From the sequence record NC_047979.1: a stretch of 64,000 nt of DNA. The stretch is one strand, 5' to 3'. A program made the translations under genes and the position numbers. Source of the stretch: Escherichia phage Gostya9. The notes under the pieces were generated by a model. The model did not search any database. It had not been told where the DNA came from and saw nothing but the letters and a program-made list of their open reading frames with translations. How positions within the stretch are numbered: the first letter of the stretch is position 1; every line of letters begins with the position of its first letter. Shown here piece by piece: positions 23,224 through 63,916 of the stretch.

Positions 23224-23753
23224 TAACACAGGAAAGGCTAAAAGAGTTATTTGATTACTCCCCAGTTTCTGGGGAGTTTACTAGAAAAGTATCTAGAGGT
23301 AATCAGAAAGCTGGTAGTATAATAACCAGAAAAGACTCTAACGGTTATATAATTATTGGTATAGATGGCAAGGATTACAAAGCCCATCGGATGGCTTTTC
23401 TATTTATGGAAAATACATTGCCGGAAAAAGTAGACCATGTAAACAGAATACCTTTTGATAATAGGTGGTGTAATCTAAGAGACGCCACAGCTCAGGAAAA
23501 TAGTAGAAATAAAACCGCATGTAGTAAGTCTGGATATTTGGGAGTTGCTTGGGATATCGAAAAACAAAGATGGAGAGTTCAAGTAAGAGACTCTAATAGC
23601 ACTCTTAAAAATGGTGGCAGATTTAAGTATGAAGAGCTAGAGCTAGCTGTAAATTCAGCAAATATATTAAGGACTAAGTTACATGGAGAACGTGCTGTTA
23701 TAGAAATTTTTGATACATCTAATTATCCTTCACTGGAGGAGTTAAATTCATGA
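23220..23753 (+). CDS. HNH homing endonuclease with AP2-like DNA-binding domain
   Basis: HNH core VDHVNRIPFDNRWCNLR...ENSRN and AP2-like YLGVAWDIEKQRWRVQV; ATGA start/stop overlap with the helicase. Confidence 0.7.
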   Translation: MITQERLKELFDYSPVSGEFTRKVSRGNQKAGSIITRKDSNGYIIIGIDGKDYKAHRMAFLFMENTLPEKVDHVNRIPFDNRWCNLRDATAQENSRNKTACSKSGYLGVAWDIEKQRWRVQVRDSNSTLKNGGRFKYEELELAVNSANILRTKLHGERAVIEIFDTSNYPSLEELNS

Positions 23754-57128: not shown

Positions 57129-58342
57129 TCTTTATCTCCCTCGGTGGAACCTTGAGGTCTACCACCTTCTTGACCAGATACACCTGTTGCAGAACCAGCA
57201 ACGTTAGCAGGAATACGAATCCTATTCATCTGCTCATCATCTAAAGGTTCAAGGTTCAGCTCTAAACGAGCTTCGTTACCAGTCATAATACCATTATTAA
57301 CCAATGAGGTTAAATGTTTAGCCTCAGCTTCTTTATCTGGTGTTAATGCAGCTACCTCCTTAGTATTAGGGGTAATCCTATAACCAAAAAAGAAAGTAAG
57401 AGAACTAGTCAGTTTGTTCAGCATAGGAATGATAGTCATATAATAGAACAATTCGATGTTTGGTCGAATATTCGCATTATTACCACCATCAATCAGTACT
57501 TGCGGAACACCAAAGGCTAGACAGATAGATTTATTAAATCCTGCGATGTCTTCCTTAAAGTCTAGATCTTTAAAAGAGGATATTTGGGAGTACGGTTTAG
57601 CTTTCATACCACCATCTAGAATCAGGACAGAAGACTGACCCGTACTAGGATTATAATCGAGTTGTAATTCTTCTTGTTTACGCTCACGCAATTTCTTGTT
57701 CAGGATTTCATCCGTTTCAAGAATAAGACCAATCACGGTTCCGTTATCTAGGAACTTCTCTTTAAAGTTAAGCATTTTAGAACGCTTCTCAAGAGAATCA
57801 ATAACAGTAGCAACACGAGATTGTCCAGAAATTTGAGAATTTGTGCCACACACGTAACTGTTATCCTTTATAAAGATAATCTCATCTACGCGATAGTTTA
57901 TCTGATTATTAAATATAAATTTTTTGATAAACTTATTGGCATCTGCCTCGACCTGCATAAGAGCGGCCGGGACGTGGTAAAGCGATGTGCCATCCCAATA
58001 GATGTATGCACAACCCTCAAAAAGTAGGTCAGTGACTACAAGTCTACGGAATGTGCTTATATCCATGAATGGATTAGGTCGTACATTTAAGAGAGTGTCT
58101 AGAGTCTTTGTTTTGACGCCATTAGCGTACGTAACAATATTATATTTATCTCCGACAGTATAAGAACACTCCGCCGCACTATCTATAACCATATTGGCAG
58201 TTCGATTGAGAATCTCAATCTTGCTATAGGCTTGTCCAGTGGTAAAAGGCTTACGGTTAGTGCGATGACTAACTGGTTCCATGTCTCTTATAATACGTTG
58301 ACCCGGATTTAGCTTTTCAGTAATCCAGCTTTTAAAACCCAT
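57125..58342 (-). CDS. Portal protein
   Basis: 405 aa directly downstream of terminase/HNH and upstream of the protease. Confidence 0.7.
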   Translation of the reverse strand: MGFKSWITEKLNPGQRIIRDMEPVSHRTNRKPFTTGQAYSKIEILNRTANMVIDSAAECSYTVGDKYNIVTYANGVKTKTLDTLLNVRPNPFMDISTFRRLVVTDLLFEGCAYIYWDGTSLYHVPAALMQVEADANKFIKKFIFNNQINYRVDEIIFIKDNSYVCGTNSQISGQSRVATVIDSLEKRSKMLNFKEKFLDNGTVIGLILETDEILNKKLRERKQEELQLDYNPSTGQSSVLILDGGMKAKPYSQISSFKDLDFKEDIAGFNKSICLAFGVPQVLIDGGNNANIRPNIELFYYMTIIPMLNKLTSSLTFFFGYRITPNTKEVAALTPDKEAEAKHLTSLVNNGIMTGNEARLELNLEPLDDEQMNRIRIPANVAGSATGVSGQEGGRPQGSTEGDKE

Positions 58343-58794
58343 TATAAGAACCTTGCGAATCCTGATTTTGTTTCAGTCTTGACTTGTGTCTTTTCTTGAG
58401 GATTCTGTAATTTGTCTTTCTGCTTTTGAACCCATGCTTTCTGTTTATCAGCAGAAAATAATGGAGGTTCTTTCGTGTAAACCTTATGTAGTAATTGGTG
58501 ATGGTGCTGGCACAATGTTACCACGTCCCTAACTAACTCATGCTCATATTTCTTGTAGAATGCTTCCCTATTTGAAAGGACGATATTCTCATCAGTGAAA
58601 TCCAGCTGGAGTTCTTTAGCAAATTTTTTTATTAGCTGAGATATAGTATGATAATGGTGAAGTTCTAGGTCTTCACTACTACCACATATAGCACAGCAAC
58701 CATCCTTACTATACCTAGATTTTATACCATCCCTCATTATAGAAATGGCATCACGTTTGTACTTAGTATTAGTGGCCATAATCCTCCAATCCAA
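58342..58794 (-). CDS. HNH endonuclease, terminase-associated
   Basis: CAICGSSEDLELHHYH...LCQHHHQLLH HNH/Zn motifs; 150 aa; between terminase and portal. Confidence 0.75.
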   Translation of the reverse strand: MDWRIMATNTKYKRDAISIMRDGIKSRYSKDGCCAICGSSEDLELHHYHTISQLIKKFAKELQLDFTDENIVLSNREAFYKKYEHELVRDVVTLCQHHHQLLHKVYTKEPPLFSADKQKAWVQKQKDKLQNPQEKTQVKTETKSGFARFL

Positions 58795-59297
58795 AGCTAC
58801 TTAGAAAGATTACTATATCCTCTAGGGCAACATTGAGATTCCATCTAATGTGGTATAGCATATATGACCCTTATTGTGTTATAGATGTAGTTTTTATTAG
58901 TATAGTTATTTGATAGCACATACCCTATTCTGAGTATTTTGGCTTTAATAGCTACATCTAGTGATATAGTGTAGAGGTGTAATGTGGTGTTGCTTCCCAA
59001 ACGTGTGCTCTCTGGCATTTAAATACTGTTTTTGTACGTTGGTTTACATATTCACCGACAATTTGGATTCCACGATCAGCTAATCTAATATTTATATCTT
59101 TTATTGTTAGCTTTTGTCGACCCGTAGAATCTCCTACACCTCATGTAGAGCATTAATTTTTTCTTGTTTACGTTCTATTATGGGAGAAGTTCTCCCGATC
59201 AATGAATATAGTATACATAATCGTATCGAATTTGTAAAGGGGATTTTAAAATACAGGAATGGGATACCAACTGAGTAGTATCCCATCCTATACTTAT

Positions 59298-60614
59298 TTA
59301 TTTACCACGGGAAATAGAGTAAATTCCATAGCGGAGCGCATCACAAAGGTGAGAGTTAGCATCATGACGTGGCCTTTCACGTGATAATTTCTCTTCACCT
59401 TCTTGGAAGTCCCACTTATAGTTCTGCAATGCATGAATTAAGGAGGAACATGAGGCATCCACAATAATTTTCCCTTGCTGGAATAGTGCTTGCAAGCATG
59501 CTAGGCCATCTAGGACAGATTTTTTAGCCGGAGCCGACGCGATTTCATGCTCATACGCTAAGTCCTGGCGGAACTGAGCTGCTGCAGAGTCAACAAAAAT
59601 ACGATCAACTTTATAACGATCTATACAGTGCTGAATATAAGCAGCATGCTGAGCTGTAGTTTTCTCCGCCTGCTGGTATTCTTCTAACACATAGTAGGTA
59701 TCTGTATCGTAATGATACTTAATAGTAAGAACTGCTGTAGGATCACGATAACCAACGTCAATACCAAGCAACGTTTCGAATGCTTCATCATCTTTAAAGA
59801 AGTGACGCATACCTTTGAGGTCTTTAACATGATCGATAGCATTAAAGGTATCAAATATCTGTCCTTCGAATACAGAGAAGTCAGCCTCGTATTCCTGGCG
59901 GAAATAGTTTTTACTAACTGTACGACGTGCTTCCTCAATGTCATGCAAGTCAGCACGTGGGTTATCACGATATGTACCATGAATAGATACCCAGTTAGGC
60001 AACGTATCATCAAATCCGTAGGCGTAAAACTCTTTAAACCAGTTACCTCCACGAGGAGTGGAAATAAATAGAGCCTTAGAATTAGGTTTATCTAGAGTAG
60101 GACGCAGCTGAACCCTGAAGGCATCACCGCCCACGTCGGAAATTGCAGCCTCGTCAAAGATGATAAAATCATATGAACGTCCAACTGCGGAGTCAGCCTG
60201 AGCCGCGGAAGCTAGTTTAAATAGAGAACCATTAGCTAACTCAATCTCTTTATCTTTGGCGTTTTCACGTTCGGTTTGTAGGCCATACTTCTTAATAAGA
60301 CCACGAATCTGAGACCATCCGATATTAGCTAGTGAATAGTTAGGAGCAACTACTAGTACCTTCACATTAGGTTCCAGCAATTTTAGGAACCCTAGTGTGT
60401 ATGCTATAAAGGACTTGCCCACACGGCGTGATACACACGCCGTTACAAAACGATGTCTAGGGTCTTCTAGCGCATTGATAATCGCTATTTGAGGGCCATT
60501 AGGTGTAATACCCTCTTGTGCTAATATTCCTGAAACAGGTAGACGAAAGAAACGTTTGTCTACCCCGAAATCAATAACATCTACTGTGTTAACGTAGGGT
60601 CTTGATACTTCCAT
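59298..60614 (-). CDS. Terminase large subunit
   Basis: N-terminal ATPase with Walker A-like CVSRRVGKSF and Walker B-like IIFDEAA; C-terminal nuclease region; 438 aa. Confidence 0.85.
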   Translation of the reverse strand: MEVSRPYVNTVDVIDFGVDKRFFRLPVSGILAQEGITPNGPQIAIINALEDPRHRFVTACVSRRVGKSFIAYTLGFLKLLEPNVKVLVVAPNYSLANIGWSQIRGLIKKYGLQTERENAKDKEIELANGSLFKLASAAQADSAVGRSYDFIIFDEAAISDVGGDAFRVQLRPTLDKPNSKALFISTPRGGNWFKEFYAYGFDDTLPNWVSIHGTYRDNPRADLHDIEEARRTVSKNYFRQEYEADFSVFEGQIFDTFNAIDHVKDLKGMRHFFKDDEAFETLLGIDVGYRDPTAVLTIKYHYDTDTYYVLEEYQQAEKTTAQHAAYIQHCIDRYKVDRIFVDSAAAQFRQDLAYEHEIASAPAKKSVLDGLACLQALFQQGKIIVDASCSSLIHALQNYKWDFQEGEEKLSRERPRHDANSHLCDALRYGIYSISRGK

Positions 60615-61096
60615 TACTTCTTACCTCCAGTAGCTAGGGAAGTAATTAAGTCCATGTAGTTTTGATCCCCAGCTCCAGCAATAATGTTATTCTGGATATT
60701 GGTCTGGTTAGCAGGAGCTCGAACGGCGGCTTTAGCTTTCTCTAGCTCTACCATCATCTTCATTTCTTCCATCTTCATTTTGTGTGCCTTCCAGAGAATA
60801 TCCATAATATCCTGGTCAGAGCCCATGCCAGTTTCTTCCAGTTCCTCTAGTTTACGCTTAATAACTTCGTCTAGAACCCCAAACAAACGATCCCTATTAC
60901 GGAATCCACTCTCCATAAAAATATCGTTTAAGTAGTTCTTAACTTCACTACGATTCATAATATCTCGAAAAGCAATTTCAGACATTCCAAGACTACGTGC
61001 GGCAGAAGGCACATCACTGCCGCACTGTAAATAAGCTTCAATCACATCCATCCCTTCAGGGGACATAAGATCTGGTACTAATACATCATTTGCCAT
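60614..61096 (-). CDS. Putative terminase small subunit
   Basis: 160 aa immediately upstream of terminase large with overlapping stop/start; HTH-like [17 protein letters not shown]. Confidence 0.5.
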
Positions 61097-63033
61097 TATG
61101 TTAACCTCTGTATATTTAATCTTAGCTTAGGAAATTGGATGTACGGCGGTTTGCCTGTGGAAACTCCACCAACCGTTAGAGGAGTAGCACGAGAAGTTCC
61201 CCAGAACTCCAGATTACCAGTACTGCCATTCTTCCTTATATAGTATTGGAACCTGCTCTTTGGTTTACCACCACTAGAGCTAGAAGCCCCTGAGTAGCTA
61301 AAAGCATTTTCCACATAGATAGGAACGTAGACGTTAGGGTTTAAAACTATTATTTGGTGAGATACAGCATCACCTTTATCATAGTCAAATTTGGTTAATC
61401 TTTTGCTAACCCCTGCCGGACTGTATATAGAGCTATTTAAACTCCAGAGATAACCCATTGAAGGATCTCCATTAGGGGAGCATAGGTCATTTCCCATCCA
61501 TTCTATGCTCATAAGCACTACTGTAGTACCAGATGCCGGTAATCCCATCCCAACACTACTAATCATTTTTGTACCACCAGTGGCTATCTCGTGTAGCCAC
61601 TCGTTATCTCCTATAATTACATTACTAGCCTTATTACCAGTAAAGAGCTGTAGAGGCCTAACTGTAGGACTCCAAATATCTACATTATTTATAGAGATTT
61701 TAGGACCCGAGCTATTAATAGCAATACTGCTATTGGTGGGGAATTTGTAAAGCCCAATATTCCATTGTGTTGTAGAACCTATGGAAGTTTCAACGTTTGA
61801 AGCTGCCCAGCTACCTGAACCTCCGGATCCGGTAGTACCATAAAACCTGAAAGCGCCCCCATCCGGTAACGCAGTGGCAGAAGATGCCTGAGTATTACTG
61901 CAAAAGTAGGTATTGCTTATACTAGGAGTACCTGTACTAACCGCTGATAACATTTCATAGGATGTGCTGCGCAAATTGACACCTTTTATATTAAAGTCAG
62001 TCCTACTAACTTTTATATCACTACCCGTAAAAAGGTTTTGAGCTGTATATCCACCAGTATTACTGAATGTTACGTTTAGAACTAGGTATTCCATACGTAC
62101 AGGGGTCATCCCAGCGTAGGTAGCTTCAGTAAACCCAGAAATTAATCCATTCCTAACATGGCGTTCAATCCCAGCACGAACAAATTTAGACATAGGTACA
62201 GAAGCATATAAATCTGGAATACTATTAGCGTAATAATCTATATTCCTAACAGATGAGGCTGTAGTACCTGCATATGTATTTTTTATCCCTGTTAGATTTC
62301 TGGCCCCACCTGCCCTAACGAATACAGTATCATAGGTGCTACTAGATGGGCCTAGGGGATACATATAATCTGGGTTTATCAGAAAGTTTTTTTCCATATC
62401 ACGAATATTTCCTGTGTATGGATTACTGCCTCTAGGAAGCCAATTCCTATTAGGTGTCCTTTTATACGGGTATTGAGACCATACACCAGTAATAGTAGCC
62501 CCCGAAGCTATATCAAAAGCATACGCTGGGTCATAATCCTCTCCAGCCTCAACATTAAATATAGTATAGCCACCAGTACCTGCCACACCAATTCTATCTG
62601 CTACAGTAACTCCCGAAGCAGCCGTATAGTACCCCCATTCTAAGTTGAGATCAAAGGATAAAGACCCACCATATAGACAGGACACACCTATTAAATCTAA
62701 GTCATGCCAAAGGTAGCTAGAAGCTCTGGCCATCCCAAACATCTGATGGTAATATTCAGTACCACCGCTGTTCTTACATACTAAAACAGGAATAACAACG
62801 TTGGCTCTATTGGCCAGGATAGTACGTAGTTCGGTTGGAAGTGTACCAATGAAGTAACCATCACCACCAGCACCTAAGTTTACCGTATAACGTGTCTTCA
62901 CGAAAAGATGTGGCATGTCTGAGTGAAATATAGTATTCCCGTTTGGCGTGTTATGTATGTTAACATCTCCCCCAGAAGCCGTATTGAGGGAAAGGACAGT
63001 TTTCGTTCCTATTCTTCCGGCAAAGAAGCTCAT
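61096..63033 (-). CDS. Putative receptor-binding tail protein (pb5-like position)
   Basis: 645-aa Gly/Ser/Thr/Asn-rich beta-type protein at the head of the late block; size and position match the T5 receptor-binding protein as I recall it. No sequence comparison was possible. Confidence 0.5.
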
Positions 63034-63194
63034 AAAACCTCAAAATTTCACTTGTCAACAAGTCTTTATTTTTGTATACTATAAGTATAAATTAAAAAGG
63101 TATCCAAGTAAACTAAATTTTTTATTTCTTGGACGGTATACTGGCAGAAACCACTATGTAAGAAAAGTAGAAGTCCTTCTAGGAGTCCACAATC

Positions 63195-63386
63195 ATGGTC
63201 GGTTATGCACAAATTATAAAATACTTTAAATATCACATTTATAGGAGCATGAAAGATATGTCAAACAAGAGAAAAAGTAGACGCGGAGAAGTGTATGAGA
63301 GTTGGGTTAATAGTTTTGGACTTGGGACTATCCTATTTTTTATTTTCGTAGGTTTTTGGTTGGCAGCTATGGCGGGGTGGATTTAA
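63195..63386 (+). CDS. Small membrane protein (C-terminal transmembrane helix)
   Basis: aggag RBS 9 nt before the ATG; C-terminal GLGTILFFIFVGFWLAAMAGWI; stop overlaps the next start (TAATG). Confidence 0.45.
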   Translation: MVGYAQIIKYFKYHIYRSMKDMSNKRKSRRGEVYESWVNSFGLGTILFFIFVGFWLAAMAGWI

Positions 63387-63487
63387 TGGAATGGGTAATT
63401 GTTACATTGCTAGGGATTGTGATTATTGGGCAATGTATTAATCACTTAGCTAGAATTGAAACTTTATTACTGGAGAAACGTAAATGA
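63386..63487 (+). CDS. Tiny membrane peptide (33 aa)
   Basis: MEWVIVTLLGIVIIGQCINHLARIETLLLEKRK; translationally coupled on both sides (TAATG and ATGA overlaps). Below the track length cut-off. Confidence 0.35.
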   Translation: MEWVIVTLLGIVIIGQCINHLARIETLLLEKRK

Positions 63488-63678
63488 TGGAAGTAGTAGC
63501 TACACTAATAGTAGTACAAGTCTGGGCAACTTTCATTGTTTCTTATAACGCGTATGTTCGCCTAAAAACTCTAGAAGCTCAAGTAAAACAACAACAAGTT
63601 ACTCTAGAAAAGCTAGTACTACTGCAACGTTGTGATAGTACCCGCATTTTGCAAATTGAGAGGGAATTAGATGTTTAG
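63484..63678 (+). CDS. Small membrane protein (N-terminal transmembrane helix)
   Basis: MMEVVATLIVVQVWATFIVSY... then a coiled-coil-like tail; coupled to its neighbours. Confidence 0.4.
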   Translation: MMEVVATLIVVQVWATFIVSYNAYVRLKTLEAQVKQQQVTLEKLVLLQRCDSTRILQIERELDV

Positions 63679-63916
63679 TATTATACTTGCTTTTATTATC
63701 GGGGTGCTTGCTGGAATTTTCGGAATGACTGCGGCTATTAACAAGCATCGCAAATATATTGCGGGAGTATCGCGGGAGATTGCGGAAAGGGAGCGGAAGT
63801 TTGACGAGAAACGTGCGGAGTTTGAGCGGGAGTGGAGTGATGGTTCTCGGGCGTCGCGGAAGAGATTTCGTGAGTTTAAACCTGAACATCGGTTTGATGA
63901 CCATTCTATGCGCTAA
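63671..63916 (+). CDS. Small membrane protein (N-terminal transmembrane helix, charged tail)
   Basis: MFSIILAFIIGVLAGIFGMTAAI... followed by an Arg/Glu-rich tail; 8-nt overlap with the upstream ORF. Confidence 0.4.
   Translation: MFSIILAFIIGVLAGIFGMTAAINKHRKYIAGVSREIAERERKFDEKRAEFEREWSDGSRASRKRFREFKPEHRFDDHSMR

Follow-up and report, generated by a model that had tools for sequence, protein, structure and literature searches.

A pb5-family receptor-binding protein in Escherichia phage Gostya9: a sister lineage of the H8 protein on an exchanged cassette that lacks an Llp-type lipoprotein gene

The receptor-binding proteins (RBPs) of phage T5 and its relatives recognize different outer-membrane receptors: pb5 of T5 binds FhuA, and the RBPs of DT57C and BF23 bind BtuB. 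H8 binds FepA (PMC6499177; PMC8594841). In the Markadamsvirinae, membership of an RBP cluster has so far predicted the receptor, and the RBP gene is located immediately upstream of terS and terL (PMC8594841). In T5 pb5, residues 1-37, 333-352, 365-371 and 427-455 form the apex segments (bioRxiv 10.1101/2022.09.22.509047), and loop L4 inserts into FhuA. Gostya9 uses a receptor other than that of T5, DT57C or 9g (PMC7862636), and thus neither FhuA nor BtuB. Both the divergent pb5 of Gostya9 and its different receptor are already published and are not new here. The phage itself is said to have been published in 2019 by Golomidova et al. The RBP and four other proteins encoded in the DNA analysed here, these four being absent from every other phage, match the proteins of Escherichia phage Gostya9 (MH203051) exactly. 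RBP cassettes are of interest because they decide which outer-membrane protein is needed, and with it host range, routes to resistance and the combinations that can be used in cocktails.

Our analysis covers a 64-kb stretch of the Gostya9 genome (the window), in which the RBP gene and its immediate surroundings are as follows:

61096..63033, minus strand: RBP gene (pb5-family, 645 aa), an ORF with an ATG start, identical to Gostya9 AWN08791.1 / YP_009802301.1
63038..63041, minus strand: ribosome-binding site GAGG, separated by 4 nt from the RBP start codon, by sequence inspection
60614..61096, minus strand: terS, the small terminase subunit and left anchor of the cassette, from PF26823 on relatives

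The 645-aa ORF is the first gene of the late block and lies exactly at the coordinates given for it in an earlier note on this DNA. The block runs leftward on the minus strand in the order RBP-terS-terL-portal, with the RBP gene most upstream, and at about position 63000 the GC skew switches together with the coding strand. The sequence TAATG combines the RBP stop codon with the overlapping start codon of terS, and the gene fits the synteny of the Markadamsvirinae, with terS and then terL directly downstream. The richness in Gly, Asn, Ser and Thr that had been noticed is also real, these residues making up 38.3% of the protein as against 24.6% in five neighbouring late proteins pooled.

Gene order, the predicted fold and matches at both sequence and profile level all identify the product as a pb5-family receptor-binding protein, and a pb5 homologue occupies the position of the T5 RBP, as that note had proposed. 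In phmmer searches of the PDB it matches the T5 pb5 structures 8a8c_B/8b14_B at E=8e-26, and the 650-position profile phrog_4815 matches residues 1-645 at E=5e-127. The AlphaFold2 (AF2) model has a pTM of 0.84, and in a Foldseek search against the PDB pb5 alone was matched (8b14_B, 8a8c_B; E=6e-27, TM 0.69 on target length). Our copy of Pfam-A gave no family for the protein in hmmscan, although PF26860 (Phage_T5_RBP5) is recorded on all relatives; since this family was seen only as a precomputed match on relatives, its model may be missing from the copy used. By homology with T5 pb5, the protein would bind an outer-membrane receptor and trigger DNA ejection; a published statement that Gostya9 has a secondary receptor of its own (PMC7862636) lends this indirect support.

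Within the family, the Gostya9 RBP is 23-24% identical to T5 pb5, 27-28% to the BtuB types DT57C and BF23, 35-36% to the RBPs of Klebsiella Sugarlandvirus and 53-55% to H8, Shivani and S124, the H8 and Shivani proteins being essentially identical to each other. The earlier note had proposed alignment to T5, BF23 and H8 and regarded the gene as likely diverged from the FhuA-binding T5 protein, a view that high full-length identity to T5 would have contradicted; the identity found is only about 24%. The strong divergence is thus upheld, but descent from a T5 allele is not, since the protein belongs to a separate lineage nearest the FepA-binding H8 RBP. In a neighbour-joining tree, Gostya9 together with P0001-P0007 forms the sister group of H8 and lies outside the H8 group itself. 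The best match in INPHARED 2025, a collection that does not contain Gostya9, is 53% identical, and scans of IMG/VR and JGI metagenomes found no closer relatives. Gostya9 is the only cultured carrier that we found of its RBP subclade, which makes it a convenient system in which to identify the receptor and to study how phages of the H8 superclade cope without Llp, the receptor blocker carried by all BtuB and FhuA types. The gene is under strong purifying selection: compared with a metagenomic relative that is 92% identical, dS is 1.2, dN 0.053 and omega 0.044, and in the distal segments alone omega is 0.06.

The surroundings of the gene are mosaic, and the features that define the exchange are the following:

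61097..63080, strand not applicable: exchanged host-range cassette of 1,984 nt, comprising the RBP gene and its upstream control stretch, by blastn
63052..63080, plus strand: sigma-70-like promoter candidate TTGTCA-17-TATACT, by consensus scan (10/12 matches)
63081..63257, strand not applicable: conserved non-coding region that follows llp in DT57C and here abuts the RBP cassette
63258..63386, plus strand: 42-aa ORF (phrog_8596) for a single-pass membrane protein, first of the divergent genes, identical to Gostya9 AWN08792.1

By blastn, the backbone is 97.7% identical to DT57C up to 61096 and 96.4% identical from 63081 onwards, with no match between, and the cassette at 61097-63080 replaces the rbp and llp genes of DT57C (KM979354 96975-99096). 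The whole distance from the RBP ATG to the DT57C-homologous region is 47 nt. The promoter candidate lies inside this cassette-specific stretch and faces rightwards to the early genes; its sequence is common to H8, with which DNA homology extends over 62740-63184. These observations suggest that the cassette entered a DT57C-like backbone in which it replaced a BtuB-specific rbp and llp module; the probable route is recombination within terS and the early-promoter region, the two conserved flanks.

The T5 segments map onto the Gostya9 RBP gene as follows:

62923..63033, minus strand: N-terminal part of the apex, codons 1-37, predicted pb4-fibre docking, mapped from T5 residues
62404..62553, minus strand: main hypervariable distal loop, codons 161-210, aligned to T5 L2 (T5 166-192)
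62149..62313, minus strand: second variable distal region, codons 241-295, aligned to T5 at about 242-268
61258..61311, minus strand: codons 575-592, counterpart of T5 loop L4 (570-590) by alignment

The remaining apex segments map from T5 to residues 336-355, 367-372 and 431-459. Apex identity is 46-50% to T5 and DT57C (50% to DT57C), and the IFHSDMP motif of the apex is invariant; identity in the distal segments is 11-14% to the same two proteins (11% to DT57C), and in the distal loops it is 12-14% to T5. Relative to H8, the scaffold is 63% and the docking apex 68% identical, while the distal segments reach 34% and the loops of low pLDDT 29%, with indels present. The main hypervariable loop, which aligns to T5 L2 with the G166 oad site and F170, is 15-40% identical to H8 in sliding windows, and residues 164-189 and 200-209 fall below a pLDDT of 50 in the AF2 model. 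In general, the segments that combine low pLDDT with low identity to H8 align to T5 L1, L2 (G166, F170) and L4. Thus, divergence from H8 is concentrated in loops that correspond by alignment to those contacting the receptor in T5, and the same alignment suggests that the variable loops cluster at one tip. By homology with T5 pb5, a single copy of the RBP would cap the central pb4 fibre, anchored to it through a conserved apical beta-helix subdomain (1-37, 336-355, 367-372, 431-459), and the variable distal loops would enter the extracellular lumen of an outer-membrane beta-barrel, leading to DNA ejection.

That the receptor differs from that of T5, as had been suspected from the sequence, is borne out by the literature (PMC7862636). 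It is probably a TonB-dependent transporter, and among these we favour FepA or a close catecholate-siderophore receptor; FepA itself we put at slightly below an even chance. The published distinction from 9g is compatible with FepA, since we found no statement of the 9g receptor in the accessible literature. However, specificity for FepA is not assured, because conservation of the distal loops with H8, a proven FepA binder, falls below that of a calibration pair of E. coli BtuB binders (distal segments, 34% against 50%; low-pLDDT loops, 29% against 41%).

The closest competitor is a pb5-family RBP that uses a fourth receptor, neither FhuA, BtuB nor FepA; candidates include the TonB-dependent CirA, Fiu, FecA, FhuE, YncD and IroN, or some other outer-membrane protein. 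We regard this as a serious though tentative proposal. It draws on the indels and the shortfall in loop identity just described and on the wording of the literature, which goes no further than to call the receptor "distinct" from the T5, DT57C and 9g receptors (PMC7862636). Moreover, eight H8-type isolates are each 52-53% identical to the Gostya9 RBP, and these include H8, an Escherichia phage according to its record, as well as isolates from Salmonella, which are all the remaining ones; variation in FepA alone seems not to demand such divergence, since the isolates are equally distant across hosts. Members of the Gostya9 subclade also differ from one another mainly in the distal loops, P0002 showing 64% identity in the distal segments and 87% in the scaffold. 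Against a fourth receptor, the nearest characterised relative binds FepA and the RBP cluster predicts the receptor (PMC8594841), the 34% distal identity to H8 is well above the 11-18% seen in pairs with different receptors, and residues of the loop framework are conserved (for example, the GEDY motif, NW.PR, and G164 in the place of T5 G166).

The Gostya9 module also lacks an Llp-type receptor-blocking lipoprotein in the 64-kb window, as do all the H8-superclade members checked. Llp is present in 27 of 27 BtuB-type and FhuA-type loci, 79-85 nt from the RBP gene and divergently transcribed. A lipobox scan in which the h-region window was relaxed, and which recovered DT57C-type and T5-type Llps as positive controls, found no lipoprotein ORF near the Gostya9 RBP gene and no Llp-type lipoprotein gene in the window or in 10 H8-superclade lineages. 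In tblastn searches of the window with DT57C Llp, ORF108 of H8 and S124 and other neighbour ORFs as queries (T5 Llp was not among them), nothing was matched, ORF108 giving chance matches only (E >3). The conserved region at 63081..63257 directly adjoins the RBP cassette and so leaves no space for llp, and the Gostya9 protein accessions are consecutive from the RBP (AWN08791) to the 42-aa ORF (AWN08792). The divergent plus-strand neighbours are small membrane-type ORFs at 63258-63916 (phrog_8596, 6369, 5851 and 6447), none of them a lipoprotein. The impression in the earlier note that these neighbours are not lipoprotein-like is therefore confirmed and its hint of a different exclusion arrangement supported, DT57C llp being precisely what is missing at this locus.

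Elsewhere in the window, lipobox matches at 23475, 47780, 52633 and 41305 were set aside as chance, being short ORFs without a typical signal peptide, tens of kb away. Most of these four ORFs have non-ATG starts. H8, Shivani, S124 and the P0007 contig have ORF108 (phrog_16810), an acidic ORF of 104-113 aa, in the interval that separates the RBP gene from the small early ORFs. Its role as a receptor-specific blocker is doubtful, since it is nearly constant beside the H8 and P0007 RBPs, which are only 55% identical.

An exclusion gene might instead reside elsewhere, in a non-canonical place, outside the window or in a non-lipoprotein form such as the small membrane ORFs at 63258-63916. Disabling the receptor is characteristic of virulent phages that target porins (PMC11990801), the window covers 64 kb whereas the genome measures ~102 kb plus terminal repeats, and four small membrane-type ORFs do follow the promoter region. 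These ORFs are, however, kept in T5, DT57C and H8 alike and so are not receptor-specific; the first of them, the non-lipoprotein 42-aa ORF, is also present in DT57C and T5 and constant across receptor types. The fixed location of Llp in all 27 loci and the negative tblastn searches likewise count against this explanation. In addition, in contigs of relatives that are 92%, 63%, 57%, 56% and 41% identical, no lipobox ORF was found within up to 4 kb upstream of the RBP gene, apart from one GTG-start ORF in L008 and one in L045; these lie at a good distance from the RBP start, and we take them for chance matches. We therefore consider an exclusion gene elsewhere improbable. If Llp is indeed dispensed with throughout the H8 superclade, irreversible binding or ejection may require an energised, TonB-coupled receptor, in which case debris of lysed cells would not inactivate progeny; this may be how its members cope.

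Could the RBP still recognize BtuB, the receptor of its backbone, or FhuA? The backbone is 96-98% DT57C-like, and S131 has been proposed to use FhuA at only ~31% identity to T5 (PMC12980165), but by the published account the receptor is neither that of T5 nor that of DT57C (PMC7862636), distal-loop identity to DT57C and T5 is 10-14% and the BtuB-type llp has been lost; we reject this reading on the literature and the loop divergence and leave it a very small probability. The reading as a decaying or non-functional remnant, or as an ORF that arose by chance, has a negligible probability, for it can appeal only to the missing Pfam match and is effectively excluded by the omega of 0.04 at dS 1.2, full-length homology and fold, with an intact ribosome-binding site, translational coupling to terS and a viable isolate used in several studies also against it.

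Taken together, Gostya9 probably carries a pb5-family RBP of an H8-sister lineage on an exchanged cassette, directed at a receptor other than FhuA and BtuB (with a FepA-like one leading) and unaccompanied by Llp. The stronger combination, in which the Gostya9 subclade uses a fourth receptor and the H8 superclade infects without an Llp-type blocker, is rather unlikely.

Among known systems, the RBPs of H8, S124 and Shivani resemble that of Gostya9 most: they are of the pb5 family and the closest lineage, and they share the terS overlap, a homologous upstream promoter stretch and the absence of an adjacent Llp. They differ in the distal receptor-contact segments (29-34% identity, with indels) and carry an ORF108-type ORF of 104-108 aa (phrog_16810) that Gostya9 lacks; H8 and Shivani also have an HNH endonuclease between the RBP gene and the small early ORFs, which is likewise absent from Gostya9. 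The Klebsiella Sugarlandvirus RBPs (for example, vB_KpnS-VAC51), for which a literature search yielded no receptor, belong to the same superclade (35-36%) and lack an upstream lipoprotein gene; their genus and host are different, and the upstream genes encode unrelated membrane proteins of 74 and 153 aa. T5 pb5 (oad) shares the fold (TM 0.69), the docking apex, the genomic position and a variable distal half of low pLDDT, but T5 binds FhuA, its RBP is only 23-24% identical, and at 79 nt upstream of that gene's start it encodes an Llp precursor of 77 aa. The Hrs RBP of DT57C and BF23, with an apex that is 50% identical, would dock on a pb4 fibre of the same type, and the backbone is 96-98% identical on either side of the cassette. 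In contrast, this RBP is a BtuB binder of 586 aa with 27% overall and 11% distal identity, and DT57C encodes an Llp lipoprotein of 88 aa (KM979354 98831-99097), which has no counterpart in the Gostya9 window. Gostya9 is thus a clean natural swap of an RBP module into a DT57C backbone.

[quoted passage not shown] The relevant features are:

61096..63033, minus strand: RBP open reading frame, 645 residues, ATG start
4 nt 5' of this ATG, minus strand: GAGG ribosome-binding site, from the sequence
3' of the RBP gene, same strand: 160-residue small terminase subunit (terS), large terminase subunit (terL; PF03237/PF17289), portal and further late genes

The earlier note had described a Gly/Asn/Ser/Thr-rich ORF at the head of the late block, and both its coordinates and its position prove exact; the combined content of these four residues is 38.3%, versus 24.6% in five neighbouring late proteins. 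The RBP stop codon overlaps the start codon of the next gene (TAATG). Further downstream, an apparently non-coding, low-GC (0.34-0.37) stretch of ~500 nt (window 58795-59297) separates terL from a nicking-endonuclease-like ORF (58342-58794); DT57C has a comparable gap at 94658-95175.

Several searches place the protein in the pb5 family. T5 pb5 is its sole match among all PDB chains (8a8c_B and 8b14_B, E=8e-26, phmmer), and the PHROGs family phrog_4815, 'receptor binding tail protein', matches it over the full length (E=5e-127). An AlphaFold2 model (alignment of 31 sequences, pTM 0.84) matches pb5 alone among solved structures (8b14_B, E=6e-27, TM 0.69 on target length). PF26860 (Phage_T5_RBP5) is present on all relatives in a 5.8-billion-protein database, and a scan of the RBP itself against one Pfam copy returned zero families. 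By exact-sequence look-up it is annotated 'receptor binding tail protein [Escherichia phage Gostya9]' (AWN08791.1/YP_009802301.1). The protein is 23-24% identical to T5 pb5 (FhuA) and 27-28% to DT57C and BF23 (BtuB); for the RBPs of Klebsiella Sugarlandvirus the figure is 35%, and for the H8/Shivani/S124 group, of which H8 is an established FepA binder (PMC8594841, PMC6499177), it is 53-55%. The proposal of a receptor-binding protein divergent from that of T5 is therefore supported. In a neighbour-joining tree, the protein and seven metagenome-derived relatives (92% down to 57% identity) form a sister subclade of H8, and this subclade, H8 and the Sugarlandvirus RBPs form a superclade remote from the BtuB and FhuA clusters. 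A phage collection without Gostya9 records contained nothing above 54% identity, and IMG/VR and JGI metagenome scans gave no closer RBP relatives.

In T5 pb5, the apex that docks on pb4 comprises residues 1-37, 333-352, 365-371 and 427-455, and the distal half is variable, poorly predicted and receptor-contacting (Degroux et al., bioRxiv 10.1101/2022.09.22.509047); the FhuA-inserting loops are L1 (Q115), L2 (F170) and L4 (570-590) (van den Berg et al.). Mapped from T5, the apex of the window protein spans residues 1-37, 336-355, 367-372 and 431-459. Identity to the replaced DT57C RBP is 50% in the apex, 27% in the scaffold and 11% in the distal segments, a gradient that fits two RBPs using the same pb4 fibre as their docking site. 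The low-confidence segments of the model (164-189, 200-209, 255-280, 528-546, 582-589) coincide with those most divergent from H8, and align to T5 100-125, 166-192, 242-268, 517-534 and 581-585, which are FhuA-contact elements. Relative to the 92% relative, dS is 1.2, dN 0.053 and omega 0.044; in the distal segments omega is 0.06 and protein identity 96-98%. These ratios indicate a functional gene with a conserved binding surface.

Distal identity also bears on the receptor. The same-receptor pair DT57C/HildyBeyeler, both E. coli BtuB binders, is 50% identical distally and 74% across the scaffold, whereas the distal figure for different-receptor pairs is 11-18%. The window protein and H8, at 34% (scaffold 63%), fall between these references, which makes FepA or a close relative the leading candidate, and a different receptor, not FepA, a serious rival. 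No paper in the literature covered names the receptor.

The RBP gene lies in a cassette (61097-63080) with zero DNA homology to DT57C. On the terS side, up to window 61096 in the start codon of that gene, identity to DT57C is 97.7%; from 63081 on it is 96.4%. Homology restarts at the final base of llp, the receptor-blocking lipoprotein gene, so in the window just 47 nt separate the RBP start codon from the conserved non-coding region:

DT57C 96985-98745: rbp
DT57C 98831-99097: llp lipoprotein gene
Inside the 47 nt of the window, rightward: putative sigma-70-like promoter by consensus match, TTGTCA-17-TATACT

This promoter stretch is homologous in H8. Over both junctions the window is collinear with the contigs that encode the 92% relative; the arrangement is thus no assembly artefact. 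The RBP gene of one such contig (L004 4001-5938) is 95-99% identical in nucleotides to window 61096-63033 over the ~45-50 codons at either end and 70-87% in the interior (scaffold dS ~2.2; ~88% overall across a 4.3-kb region containing the gene, blastn), which suggests that old alleles are exchanged between backbones via recombination inside conserved gene ends. Two of these Logan contigs (L004 6420-7735, L007 2510-3825) have terL broken into 56- and 374-residue ORFs, perhaps a frameshift variant, perhaps an artefact of assembly; terL is whole (438 residues) in L005 and L006 from the same series of runs.

Lipoprotein partners were sought with a lipobox and signal-peptide scan that recovered the DT57C/BF23-type and T5-type Llp controls. 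In 27/27 fetched BtuB- and FhuA-cluster loci, a lipoprotein ORF lies upstream of the RBP at a distance of 79-85 nt. The scan found none near the RBP in the window, in line with the earlier note, which saw nothing lipoprotein-like in the divergent neighbouring genes, and none in ten lineages of the H8 superclade whose upstream sequence was long enough (H8, S124, Shivani, a 'Corynebacterium' record, the contigs of metagenomic relatives P0001, P0003, P0006, P0007 and P0009, and VAC51). With DT57C Llp, H8 ORF108 and other neighbour ORFs as tblastn queries, there was no match in the 64 kb. The RBP (AWN08791) is followed by membrane-type proteins of 42 (AWN08792), 33, 64 and 81 residues, all kept in T5, DT57C and H8 regardless of receptor. 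The terL and 42-residue sequences match Gostya9 exactly and are shared by DT57C, and those of the portal, head-decoration protein and 64-residue ORF were found in Gostya9 alone (exact-sequence look-up). The 81-residue ORF (phrog_6447; 63671-63916, plus strand) has a weak, sub-threshold match to the LapA domain (PF06305, E=3.4e-4, 20.9 bits versus a 28-bit cutoff). Unlike its neighbours, which are identical to Gostya9 proteins, it has no exact counterpart in the protein collection.

An acidic non-lipoprotein ORF of 104-113 residues (phrog_16810), with neither signal peptide nor lipobox, occupies the llp position in H8, Shivani, S124 and the P0007 contig; this type is absent from the window as well:

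S124 orf155: L013 2219-2530
PQ773600: L002 6206-6544
H8: L010 3733-4059
Shivani: L003 4233-4559

The S124 and PQ773600 records label it 'receptor blocking protein' or T5 Llp-like, apparently from position alone. It is nearly constant beside the RBPs of H8 and the P0007 contig (L046), which share just 55% identity. PQ773600.1 ('Corynebacterium phage CPphiVTCCBPA_418', 41,325 nt) itself has an H8-type pb5 RBP and T5-type terS/terL, portal and prohead protease, and is 72-85% identical to window DNA (terminase region ~85%); it looks like a Tequintavirus fragment, and a Corynebacterium host is implausible. Citrobacter phage Cit2 (OP745948.1) was published as 96.9% identical to T5 and inferred to use FhuA (PMC12980165). 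This is contradicted by its 585-residue RBP, which is closer to that of DT57C (73% identity) than to T5 pb5 (30%), and by the BtuB-type Llp upstream.

Thus, across 27 loci versus the window and ten lineages, the BtuB and FhuA clusters always have Llp and the H8-related superclade never does. Rabsch et al. 2007 (cited in PMC12980165) call H8 TonB-dependent in their title. A need for an energised receptor is, speculatively, one reason why the superclade needs no Llp. T1, however, is also TonB-dependent. It nonetheless encodes Cor (PMC11990801).

Gostya9 (MH203051; Golomidova et al. 2019, Arch Virol 164:879) was isolated from horse faeces and is closely related to DT57C. This phage is published and its RBP feature already known, and the overall interpretation in the earlier note is supported. 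The 2019 abstract of Golomidova et al. reportedly names a divergent pb5 and absent llp among the features setting Gostya9 apart from DT57C. To these, our analysis adds the sequence-based placement as a sister subclade to the FepA binders of the H8 group, the exact borders of the cassette, the Llp dichotomy, the strong purifying selection and the loop-level mapping onto T5 contact elements.
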